This document shows, piece after piece, positions 2,051 to 22,345 of a stretch of DNA of 35,013 bases. Position numbers and translations under genes: made by a program. The notes beneath the pieces were generated by a model that was given only the letters and a program-made list of their open reading frames with translations, was not told the DNA's origin and did no database searches. The number at the start of each line of letters is the position of its first letter. Position 1 is the first letter of the stretch. Source of the DNA: a virus; IMG/VR virus record IMGVR_UViG_3300044679_000086; one strand, 5' to 3'.

Positions 2051-3835
2051 TTATTCAGTAATTTTATTATATCCATATTTCAAAGCAGCCGGTCCTAAAA
2101 GAAAGCCTATCATTTTATTCCTTGATTTTCGCAATTTCTCTTCAGATTTTGCAATTGCATCTTTTCTTTTGGTGACCTCAACTTTGCCGGCTCTTGTAAG
2201 TTCTAATTCATGCTTTAATAGTTCTTTAAGTCTACGTTTTTTTTCTTGAAGTTGAAAAACGGATTTTTTCTGCTCATCGATTAATCGACCAATTTCTGGA
2301 TTAGATTTTATATATGGTTCAATTAATTTGTTTGGCTTCAAAAGTTTTTCAGGATTTTCAGCAAAAGAGTGGGCTAATGCTAATTTAGATAGCTCTGGAT
2401 TATTTTGTATTAAATTCGTAATAATCTTATTCCCTGAAGTGGTTCCTGATAATGACTCAATTACATCACCAGAATAACGACCATGTTTTAACATTTGTTG
2501 ATACAAAGGATTGTCGTGTAAAGGAGCTACTTTGTTAGCATATTCATGATTAATTTCATGAAGACTTTTTAATGTATTTTTTGGGAAATGTTGCTCGATA
2601 ATCTTTTCCATTTGTTCATAATTTTTCTTTGTTTTATCAGCTCTGTGTACCCATTCATCATGTGCTTTAGGGTCTAATCCAAATGCCTTTGAACGCTCCT
2701 GACCTTCCAGTCGCCTTAAGGATCTATATGTCCTAAAAAATTCTTTTCCATTTATTTGCTTATTTTTTGTATAAAGTGGTGCTATTACTTTTTCAAAAGC
2801 TGCTTTATCCGAATCTGTTACATCAGGACTTTTCCCAAAATGTGATTTAAGTGCTTTATTTAGTGATTTTATATCAGTAATTGGAATATTTACTTCAGGT
2901 AAACTTTCTTCCAATGCATCATATTTTTTCCCTATTTCTTCTCTTAATCCACCGTGTCTAACCTCTCTTGGTAGTCCTGTTTTAGGATGAGGTTCCATTA
3001 CTGGAGTTCCTTCTATGGACTCTACAATATGACGTGATAAATCTTGTATATTTGGTTCACCTTCACCTAGATATTTTTTTATTTCTTCATTTATTTCAGG
3101 AGATGCTTTTCCTTCTTTAGGTATTTGGCTTATCTGATTCTTAAGTTCTTGTGCTTCAGCATTTTGCATTTCATGTTCATATAAAGCTTTGTAATAATCT
3201 CTTTGCTTGGCTGAGACATTACGATTCTGAATATAATTTTTAGCTCCTTGTAAAGCAGTAGGAATAACTTCCCCTGCAGATCCTAATCCAGCGCCTATCA
3301 TTCTGTTATCTGGACTTATAGAAGAGCCTAATGTGCCTCCAGCCAATACATTTCGGATAAGCTCAGGTACCTTTTTGGCATAAGGTAAAGATTCTAGCCC
3401 TTTCTTTGTTGCTTGATAACCACGATAAGCGGGTAAACCCATTCCTAGGGAACCGATTGTTTCCGCAGCTTCACCAACATAAGGATTAACATTAACTTCA
3501 CTATACTGTTGTTTTGGGATGTTTACCCCAGGGACTAAATTGGCTAGACCTCTACTCATGTCAATCCCTGTGCCTAATAATCCTTTTGCTGCTGAAGGCA
3601 ATCCTGTACCTTCTACGGCACGATTGAAATGCCCCGCTATATTACCCGCAGTTTCAAGACCCGGAGTTCCTCTAAGCAATTCTGCGGCCTTATAAAGGTA
3701 TGGATGTCTTTTCTTTATTGTTTCAATCTGATTTCCTTCTTTTTTGGATTTTTTAGGTTGAGCAAGATATTGAGACCATCTGTCTTCATTGGCCTGTATT
3801 CCTGATGCTTTATATTGTTCCCATTTATCATTCAT
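2051..3835 (-). CDS. Putative internal virion / ejection protein (size and position of P22 gp16)
   Basis: 594-aa ORF, last of three consecutive genes whose sizes (201/363/594 aa) and order parallel P22 gp7/gp20/gp16. The C-terminal third is charged and coiled-coil-like. No catalytic motif recognised. Its start overlaps the upstream stop by 8 nt. Confidence 0.4.
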   Translation of the reverse strand: MNDKWEQYKASGIQANEDRWSQYLAQPKKSKKEGNQIETIKKRHPYLYKAAELLRGTPGLETAGNIAGHFNRAVEGTGLPSAAKGLLGTGIDMSRGLANLVPGVNIPKQQYSEVNVNPYVGEAAETIGSLGMGLPAYRGYQATKKGLESLPYAKKVPELIRNVLAGGTLGSSISPDNRMIGAGLGSAGEVIPTALQGAKNYIQNRNVSAKQRDYYKALYEHEMQNAEAQELKNQISQIPKEGKASPEINEEIKKYLGEGEPNIQDLSRHIVESIEGTPVMEPHPKTGLPREVRHGGLREEIGKKYDALEESLPEVNIPITDIKSLNKALKSHFGKSPDVTDSDKAAFEKVIAPLYTKNKQINGKEFFRTYRSLRRLEGQERSKAFGLDPKAHDEWVHRADKTKKNYEQMEKIIEQHFPKNTLKSLHEINHEYANKVAPLHDNPLYQQMLKHGRYSGDVIESLSGTTSGNKIITNLIQNNPELSKLALAHSFAENPEKLLKPNKLIEPYIKSNPEIGRLIDEQKKSVFQLQEKKRRLKELLKHELELTRAGKVEVTKRKDAIAKSEEKLRKSRNKMIGFLLGPAALKYGYNKITE

Positions 3836-21670: not shown

Positions 21671-21680
21671 TTCTCATTAA

Positions 21681-21821
21681 TGGTGACAACCGGTGGGAGT
21701 TGCACCCACTAGAGCCGGGCTGCTCAGCGATGAAGGTTTTATGGAAGGAGCCCCGTGCACACTATGTATCCCAAATTTAGCTTCATCTTTACTATACGTC
21801 ACTGTCCGTATTGCGATTGTC
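21681..21821 (-). ncRNA. tRNA-like structured RNA candidate ending in CCA, with a non-canonical or absent anticodon arm
   Basis: On the minus strand, GACAATCG (21821..21814) pairs with CGGTTGTC (21692..21685) and is followed by A-CCA. There is a T-arm-like hairpin GTGGG-TGCAACT-CCCAC (21709..21693) and a D-arm-like hairpin ATACG-GACAGTGA-CGTAT (21811..21794). A 7-bp helix GATGAAG/CTTCATC encloses 45 nt where the anticodon arm should be. Confidence 0.45.
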
Positions 21822-21825
21822 AAAT

Positions 21826-21900
21826 TGGCTCCCCGTGATAGATTCGAACTACCGACCAACAAATTAACAGTTTGCCGCACTACCGCTGTGCTAACGGGGA
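21826..21900 (-). tRNA. tRNA-Asn (anticodon GUU) with an encoded CCA
   Basis: Minus strand: TCCCCGT-TA-GCAC-AGCGGTA-GTGC-G-GCAAA-CTGTTAA-TTTGT-TGGTC-GGTAG-TTCGAAT-CTATC-ACGGGGA-G-CCA. It folds into a full cloverleaf with a 7-bp acceptor stem, GG in the D-loop, a TTCGAAT T-loop and anticodon loop CU-GUU-AA. Confidence 0.9.
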
Positions 21901-22035
21901 ATATTTATTTCTTTTCTTTTCTAATCTTCTGGCATTACGCGCTGTAATTGGCTTAATTGCATTATCGTGAGATTTCATCATCGTGCCGTTAACTTTGATA
22001 TTCGCTTGTTTAACTCTCATTACCCATTCCCTTCA

Positions 22036-22266: not shown

Positions 22267-22345
22267 TATGATGTCCTATCAATACCCGCCGATTTGAGCT
22301 TGTTGAAATGTGTGATAAAAACAGAGGCTTGGCGGGTGTATTCTT

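Follow-up and report, generated by a model that had tools for sequence, protein, structure and literature searches.

Stable tRNA-like RNAs have been known in phage tRNA clusters since the 1970s, namely species 1 (rnaC) and species 2 (rnaD) of phage T4. These RNAs are about 120–140 nt long and lie directly downstream of a phage tRNA, where rnaD begins 1 nt past tRNA-Arg and rnaC 6 nt past rnaD. The precursor that yields the tRNAs also gives rise to both RNAs (PMC2330249). Here we describe an element of similar size and position, known from sequence alone, in the IMG/VR virus record IMGVR_UViG_3300044679_000086. The whole 35,013-nt stretch is referred to as the window, and coordinates given without a locus name are those of the window. 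The element occupies positions 21681–21821 on the minus strand (141 nt) and begins 4 nt after a tRNA-Asn gene. We estimate at roughly one in two (about 0.5) the probability that it is a non-decoding, tRNA-shaped RNA gene of a previously uncatalogued family, which combines a scaffold with a variable module and is made by tRNA-processing enzymes. The T4 species 1 RNA, together with species 2, is the closest analogue, with no detectable homology. Like the element, rnaC carries a T arm close to the 3' terminus, has a hairpin at its side and substitutes a long arm for the anticodon arm. The T loop is the canonical UUCGAAU in rnaC but UGCAAUU in the family, and the combination of a constant frame with a hypervariable insert is not known from T4. 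The T4 region (L068) was matched by neither of the two covariance models that we used, R1, built from the window copy and the copy at the related locus L002, and R2, restricted to the frame. The phages carrying the family are also unlike T4, with genomes of approximately 35–40 kb, a lambdoid gene set and the element located between the terminase genes.

Other described RNAs resemble the element in parts of their architecture. Bacterial tRNA-Sec shares with it an extra arm and the 13-bp stack of acceptor and T stems in 8/5 geometry, which in tRNA-Sec is used by SelB rather than EF-Tu. In the tRNA-like domain of tmRNA, the ends likewise form an acceptor stem, a T arm lies on the 3' side and a non-tRNA domain occupies the position of the anticodon arm. 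The non-coding Y RNA YrlA likewise imitates the elbow and acceptor/T stack of tRNA, and the tRNA-like module of bacterial Y RNAs is reportedly handled by tRNA enzymes. Unlike the element, YrlA has a closed acceptor-like stem, and its free ends belong to the Ro-binding stem. Allo-tRNAs, found in metagenomes and phages and sometimes near toxin-antitoxin genes, have non-canonical acceptor/T geometries (PMC5389517). They differ from the element in having a 12-bp stack and real anticodon loops and in being translated.

The element, the tRNA-Asn and the spacer between them are all encoded on the minus strand, on which the element reads GACAAUCG-CA-AUACG-GACAGUGA-CGUAU-AGUAAA-GAUGAAG-(45 nt)-CUUCAUC-GCU-GAGC-AGCCCG-GCUC-UA-GUGGG-UGCAACU-CCCAC-CGGUUGUC-ACCA. 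Its ends form an 8-bp acceptor helix between GACAAUCG (21814–21821) and CGGUUGUC (21685–21692), which contains one U-G pair and is followed by a single-stranded ACCA tail (21681–21684), that is, a discriminator A and an encoded CCA. The 3' acceptor strand directly abuts the T arm (21693–21709), a 5-bp stem GUGGG/CCCAC with the 7-nt loop UGCAACU, in which G replaces U at position 55; this gives the 8/5 geometry. The D arm (21794–21811), a 5-bp stem AUACG/CGUAU with the 8-nt loop GACAGUGA, begins 2 nt past the 5' acceptor strand. All three helices were identified from the sequence and from covariation. The T arm abutting the acceptor and the spacing of the D arm are traits of canonical tRNAs. 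At the anticodon position lies a 59-nt extended arm (21729–21787), delineated from the minimum-free-energy (MFE) fold and covariation, whose 7-bp outer stem GAUGAAG/CUUCAUC (21781–21787 with 21729–21735) encloses 45 nt. In the MFE fold, these 45 nt form internal loops, an inner 5-bp helix (21769–21773 with 21742–21746) and a 22-nt apical loop (21747–21768). A variable-arm-like hairpin, GAGC-AGCCCG-GCUC (21712–21725), is evident in the sequence and is kept in the orthologous copies at L002 and L165. The MFE fold of the window copy gives the same architecture as the proposed helices. The initial annotation, made from the letters alone, had described the acceptor, T-arm, D-arm, variable-arm and outer 7-bp helices and the absence of an anticodon loop from the enclosed 45 nt, and all of these helices were present where it had placed them.

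Upstream, the tRNA-Asn(GUU) with its own encoded CCA (21826–21900, minus strand; called by ARAGORN, Rfam tRNA 64.6 bits) ends at 21826, and is followed by the 4-nt spacer AUUU (21825–21822), which puts a U immediately ahead of the element's first paired base (position −1) and agrees with the distance first reported. The two genes probably constitute one processing unit, with tRNA-Asn as the upstream partner.

The fold is supported by the comparison of orthologous copies. Among 65 loci gathered from IMG/VR as relatives of the window phage by their large terminase subunit (TerL), L002 carries a 70%-identical copy that begins 4 nt downstream of where a tRNA-Asn 3' half ends. Another copy, in L165/L166 (3161–3297), was reached through the cluster of TerL sequences at 90% identity and is located 4 nt downstream of an intact tRNA-Asn. 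The search for homologues next to tRNA genes of related phages, which the initial annotation had proposed, was thus productive. Across the window, L002 and L165, 34 of 34 pairs are kept and all 102 cells are standard pairs, compared with 36–51% paired cells in controls in which the 3' partners were slid by 1–3 columns. Ten pairs changed on both sides: three of five in the D stem, four of seven in the outer stem at the anticodon position (with none broken), one in the variable-arm hairpin and two in the T stem. The variable-arm hairpin reads GAGG(U)/(A)CCUU in L002 and L165 and is not a family-wide feature. Between the window and L002, the element is approximately 70% identical and the TerL DNA 79% identical, which indicates that the element diverged at least as fast as TerL, yet all its pairs were kept. 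Each of the three copies folds independently into the same shape, and this, together with the retention of all pairs, argues that the extended arm is a selected structure rather than a chance hairpin.

Two segments of the extended arm are invariant in the three copies, namely UUUGGNAUACA, which runs from an internal loop into the inner helix, and CUCCUUCCAUAAAA, which covers the end of the apical loop, the 3' strand of the inner helix and an internal loop. A search for antisense targets of these two segments within the phage gave nothing better than chance. The extended arm of the window type was seen only in the window, L002 and L165, and the other members of the family carry unrelated inserts. 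In IMG/VR, an exact 29-mer and patterns anchored on GGGTGCAA recovered only L002 and L051, and a metagenome scan for the window-type insert returned only the L002 contig again and one chance match. The apical-loop sequence GG-GCUC (21748–21754) can also pair with the 5' strand and loop of the variable arm (21717–21725, minus strand; GAGC, a 3-nt bulge, then CC). The one variable position of this pairing differs in each copy (window G-C, L002 C-G, L165 U-G); these three sequences are slight evidence for what could be a pseudoknot, or an alternative conformer competing with the variable-arm hairpin.

The initial annotation had treated the element as a single oddity, whereas it proved to belong to a family whose members combine a conserved frame with a hypervariable insert. 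About 33 members of 88–215 nt were identified by covariance model, pattern and inspection, on contigs of uncultured phages from IMG/VR, metagenome-assembled genomes (MAGs), Logan and ENA. Model R1 detected further members among the TerL-related loci. A pattern built from the T loop and the 3' acceptor strand yielded 32 further viral-contig loci, of which 25 held members, and L027, L046 and L030 joined the family after inspection. The shared layout is GACAAUCG-CG-D arm at the 5' side and a T arm with the loop UGCAAUU followed by CGAUUGUC at the 3' side, in 8/5 geometry. More fully, the consensus is GACAAUCG-CG-GCGUG-GACAGUGA-CACGC for the 5' part and AG-CAGG-UGCAAUU-CCUG-CCGAUUGUC for the 3' part, followed by a tail that is mostly N-C-Y. 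The D loop GACAGUGA is the commonest form in the alignment, and the T loop is nearly invariant.

When 30 frames were aligned by sequence alone, 99.3% of cells were paired (27–44% in the slid controls), and an alignment fitted to the model agreed. Fourteen of the 18 frame pairs changed on both sides, comprising five of eight in the acceptor stem, all five in the D stem and four of five in the T stem, so that the covariation proposed as a check on these helices was observed both here and in the three orthologous copies. The acceptor cells are paired in 100% of cases; the eighth pair is complementary in 30 of 30 frames and is U-A in L030. The acceptor stems of L030 (GACCGAUU/AAUUGGUC, eighth pair included) and L027 (GAAAGUAG/CUACUUUC) are fully compensated, which supports that the 8/5 geometry is real. 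Many pairs are G-U, and only 4 of 538 cells hold a non-standard pair, which assigns the structure to an RNA of the gene strand rather than to a DNA cruciform. Pair 3:70 is C-G in 27 of 30 frames.

A scan based on structure only (T stem of 5 bp, UGNRANN loop, acceptor stem of 8 bp directly adjoining and, after 2 nt, a D arm of 5 bp) gave 38 matches compared with 2 in shuffled DNA and recovered essentially this family alone; no other 8/5 tRNA-like family with UGNRA T loops was found in the loci scanned. A genome scan with the pattern returned 58 matches, only two of them real members, both on short MAG contigs. Among deposited phages, no relative was found by megablast, blastn or a query with the frame consensus. 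Of the 32 members tabulated, 27 have a U at −1 and 15 have the leader UUAU. Most members use A as the discriminator and the others G, C or U, and C usually stands second in the tail. The element was initially characterised by its CCA end; this holds for the ACCA encoded in the window, but it is not a family trait, because ACCA occurs in 3 of the 32 members and L165, the closest orthologue, ends in ACCC.

Programs for known RNAs did not recognise the family. ARAGORN called tRNA-Asn only, the Rfam tRNA model had no match over the element (E ≤ 10) or over nine member loci (E ≤ 1), and none of the 4227 families of Rfam 15 matched the element at E ≤ 10. Several specific identities were considered and rejected. 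The resemblance to tRNA-Sec that had been pointed out is confined to the geometry: the 8/5 stack is present, but the UCA loop is missing, as had also been remarked, the D arm has 5 bp and an 8-nt loop rather than 6 bp and 4 nt, the discriminator is mostly A and not G73, and RF01852 gave no match. A tmRNA was rejected on the lack of a G3-U70 pair, a tag frame and pseudoknots, on the real D stem and on the negative ARAGORN and Rfam results, and YrlA on the absence of an RF02553 match over the element, the free ends in the acceptor stem and the absence of a TROVE domain from the window open reading frames (ORFs) scanned. Allo-tRNAs of the 8/4 or 9/3 type do not fit a stack of 8 + 5 = 13 bp without an anticodon loop.

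The inserts carried by the frame measure 29–156 nt, and the 32 elements tabulated contain 28 unrelated types of them. The family lacks a conserved anticodon stem-loop flanking the insert on either side, and the inserts match no intron family of Rfam. In L077, at 88 nt the shortest member, the anticodon position is occupied by a 5-bp stem with the 7-nt loop UGUCAUG. In L051 and L078, which share an insert type, the stems of the insert covary, as they do in the window type, and in 1.5 Mb of related DNA sampled inserts were never found outside frames. These patterns suggest that the insert is selected and not junk. The initial annotation had proposed a tRNA interrupted by a small intervening sequence; its remark that the insert is too short for a group I intron, which has 200 nt or more, applies to the 45 nt enclosed in the window and to the inserts of the family, and the proposal itself was abandoned on the lack of conserved anticodon flanks, the diversity of insert types and the absence of intron matches. 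As a separate observation, the insert of the L099 member (3056–3253) holds a nested tRNA-like sequence (3104–3222, Rfam tRNA 36 bits) with a 54-nt insertion in its own anticodon loop.

The members sit between the Sf6-type small terminase subunit gene (TerS) and the genes for TerL and portal protein, nearly always on the gene strand. They are accessory, being present in 9 of the 65 TerL-related loci. Ordinary tRNAs, mostly Asn, Tyr and Gln, occur in about half of 60 loci scanned. Some members lie within tRNA arrays, between tRNA-Pro and tRNA-Met in L098 and 2 nt after tRNA-Asn in L099, while L082 has copies on both sides of tRNA-Gln and L073 has three copies, one of them on the opposite strand. 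The window itself has a lambdoid gene set, including Sf6-type TerS, TerL, a lambda P-like replication protein, YqaJ exonuclease, RecT, SSB, RusA and endolysin, and encodes a 700-aa portal-like protein whose orthologues in related loci contain a P22_portal domain. Its TerL is less than 35% identical to that of any deposited phage.

Taken together, the element is very probably a real structured RNA gene with the described fold, and with similar confidence we consider that it does not decode, since it has no anticodon loop. Bacterial RNase P favours substrates with a U at −1, base-pairs to the 3' RCC and also reads the acceptor/T stack and the elbow. The stack, the elbow, U(−1) and the C of the tail are what RNase P, the 3'-end enzymes and the CCA-adding enzyme recognise in tRNA maturation. 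Because U(−1) is present, C usually stands second in the tail, and the acceptor, T stem and elbow are tRNA-like, release by RNase P seems likely, and maturation by tRNA-processing enzymes as a whole is probable on the same features. The conserved parts are those recognised by maturation enzymes and not those used in decoding, which points to excision together with tRNA-Asn and stable accumulation. A single transcript of the gene strand would carry both tRNA-Asn and the element, RNase P would free the 5' end of the latter at 21821, and the tRNA 3'-end pathway would trim the other end, where ACCA is encoded in the window and CCA would be added in the relatives. The product would be a stable L-shaped RNA of approximately 141 nt, in which the frame would serve as the scaffold for processing and stability and the variable arm would do the actual work. 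Its most plausible action would be to bind or titrate a host factor, in an accessory capacity. This division into scaffold and module is plausible but slightly short of an even chance, and a role of the element in counter-defence, suggested by context only, is rather doubtful. The proposal in the initial annotation of a tRNA mimic or decoy is compatible with the conservation of the acceptor/T stack and D/T elbow in a body that would not decode; given the missing anticodon loop, the element is unlikely to act as a lure for anticodon nucleases.

Several observations weigh against this interpretation. The fold energy of the window copy does not differ significantly from that of shuffled sequence (MFE z = −1.09; 32 of 200 shuffles folded equally well), which by itself is the outcome named at the outset as speaking against the element; the test is, however, insensitive here, because the genuine tRNA-Asn alongside scores z = −1.29, and the orthologue copies score −2.18 and −3.39. 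The conservation of the frame sequence is inflated, since most members were collected by a pattern fixing the T loop and the 3' acceptor strand; among members found without that pattern, GACAAUCG is the 5' acceptor strand in six of nine. The window-type insert is known from just three phages, and identical runs of 14 bases are not by themselves significant at approximately 70% identity. The inserts share no common k-mer and match no Rfam family (E ≤ 1), known antitoxin RNAs included. RNase P normally measures a 12-bp stack, and that of the element has 13 bp. No conserved protein partner was found within 4 kb, where clustering of neighbouring ORFs gave TerS, TerL, portal and scattered small ORFs only, and the small flanking ORFs matched nothing from Pfam or PHROGs. 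Finally, many members end 8–20 nt before the next ribosome-binding site, which fits a role in cis equally well.

Such a role in cis is the lesser but serious possibility that the frame is a processing or punctuation signal, at which RNase P and 3' enzymes would divide the polycistronic late transcript in the interval from TerS to TerL and so set the ends and stability of the neighbouring mRNAs, with the insert as a tolerated filler that needs only to fold harmlessly. The constant position between TerS and TerL on the gene strand, the conserved U at −1, the unrelated and length-variable inserts without a common motif and the absence of a partner protein would all be expected of such a signal, and the short distance to the next ribosome-binding site keeps it credible. 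A signal of this kind is not needed for terminase expression, however, given that only 9 of 65 related phages carry a member; the ordinary tRNAs of the same islands would do the same job, the frame loops and acceptor sequence are conserved beyond what RNase P needs, and one of the three copies in L073 lies on the opposite strand. It is the compensated helices in two insert types, combined with the dispensability of the element for the lineage, that lead us to favour a trans-acting accessory RNA over a processing signal. It is unlikely that the element is instead an amino-acid-accepting RNA, charged by a synthetase that ignores the anticodon (of the LeuRS, SerRS or AlaRS type) for ribosomal or non-ribosomal use, or an unconventional tRNA whose intron is spliced out to leave a normal one. 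The intact acceptor/T/D body with the ACCA encoded in the window copy, the discriminator A of most members, the 7-nt loop at the anticodon position of L077 and the occurrence of the T loop UGCAAUU in a real phage tRNA-Met of L099 speak for charging, but no anticodon stem-loop is conserved family-wide, the discriminator varies and CCA is usually absent, pair 3:70 is C-G and not G-U, and the 13-bp stack is of the kind used by SelB and not EF-Tu. The Rfam models for tRNA, tRNA-Sec and introns, and ARAGORN, found no match, and an insert of 29–156 nt could accommodate neither a group I nor a group II intron.

The remaining explanations are far less probable than these. A decaying pseudo-tRNA or non-functional relic beside tRNA-Asn, as the initial annotation had also considered, could account for a window fold no better than shuffled sequence, and tRNA relics do exist in the lineage, for example the tRNA-Asn halves of L002; but decay is very hard to reconcile with 34 of 34 pairs kept over approximately 30% divergence with 10 double changes, with frame covariation maintained by compensatory changes across about 33 members, and with the fully compensated acceptor stems of L027 and L030, and a pseudogene was rejected on this covariation. 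Equally little can be said for a small tmRNA-like RNA, with a tRNA-like domain and a short tag, or a Y-RNA-like mimic. The topology is that of the tRNA-like domain of tmRNA with the rest inserted between the D region and the T arm, but the 141-nt element has a real D stem and no G3-U70 pair, the sole reading frame shared by the window and L002 inserts is broken by a 4-nt indel, and YrlA ends in a Ro-binding stem and not an acceptor stem. ARAGORN, which recognises tmRNA, called tRNA-Asn only, Rfam found neither tmRNA nor YrlA at E ≤ 10, and neither the TROVE (Ro60) nor the SmpB family was found among the window ORFs scanned. A DNA-level site, whether pac, att or an inverted-repeat mobile element, is likewise highly improbable. 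The ends do form an 8-bp inverted repeat, packaging genes adjoin, and a homing-endonuclease cassette lies nearby in L002; on the other hand, the common G-U pairs would be A-C mismatches on the other strand, three nested helices covary, and the flanks contain no target-site duplications.

As for the novelty of the non-decoding RNA family, no description of it was found in Rfam 15 or the searchable literature. New features are the combination of a frame with a hypervariable insert, the T loop UGCAAUU, the 8/5 arrangement of the stack and the location between the terminase genes. A survey of IMG/VR reports thousands of unnamed candidate RNAs, 14 of which are upstream of a putative large terminase gene (PMC10690425), and the family may be among the candidates covered there. 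Its genes are missed by ARAGORN and Rfam 15, and a covariance model can now be built from the present alignments. To the two stable RNAs of T4 the family adds dozens of natural variants, in which a constant frame with an exchanged insert separates the requirements for making the RNA from the likely effector. On a bolder and improbable extension, the frame would be a natural display scaffold with which one lineage makes a changing repertoire of modules, one per phage, that neutralise host factors such as RNA-targeting abortive-infection toxins. If so, the inter-terminase region would be an RNA-only counter-defence island, consisting here of an abiF antitoxin-type RNA, tRNA-Asn and the scaffolded module; and if the inserts are host-directed decoys, they would represent a new phage use of RNA and a natural counterpart of the engineered tRNA scaffolds for recombinant RNAs.

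The abiF-motif RNA (Rfam RF03085) is an orphan located at 22284–22336 on the minus strand (42.6 bits; gathering score 37), between a 65-aa and a 76-aa ORF and approximately 460 nt upstream of the element. In its described context, abiF-motif RNA neutralises the AbiF toxin by direct binding, like a type III antitoxin (PMC12373285). Neither an Abi_2/AbiF protein nor any of the RNA-directed enzyme families was found among the window ORFs scanned, and the motif was absent from 28 related loci scanned. The window copy may be a phage-borne antitoxin mimic. Two further ORFs on the minus strand, of 46 aa (21880–22020) and 67 aa (21677–21880), overlap the tRNA-Asn and the element and are almost certainly not genes.

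The tRNA-Asn of L002 is rearranged next to the element. Positions 3231–3826 of this locus contain a decayed 5' half of tRNA-Asn (3231–3268), an intact tRNA-Asn (3280–3354) and an HNH endonuclease ORF (3359–3793; PHROG HNH, E = 1.6e-32), and a 3' half of tRNA-Asn (3795–3822) directly precedes the element. This arrangement looks like a homing-endonuclease cassette inserted in tRNA-Asn and is reminiscent of segB, the homing endonuclease gene in the T4 tRNA cluster.

Other unusual tRNA-like sequences were observed in the related phages. The tRNA-Met of L099 that shares the unusual T loop UGCAAUU with the frame is located at 3429–3500. ARAGORN reported 'anticodons' of 2 or 4 nt at L008 4895–4965, L017 2644–2721, L028 2015–2102 and L099 2829–2899, and these genes, with their shortened or lengthened loops, represent another type of tRNA body in the lineage whose anticodon loop is disabled. 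Within a few nucleotides upstream of several members there are other hairpins or tRNA-like 3' ends, at L030 455–468, L071 2810–2835, L086 7575–7604, L091 (before 11175) and L051 2538–2625; they were not called by ARAGORN, and their loops UGAAAGC, UGAGAGC, UGAAAUU, UGUAAGU and UGGAAAU are of the UGNRA type. The inter-terminase islands may hold more unannotated structured RNAs.

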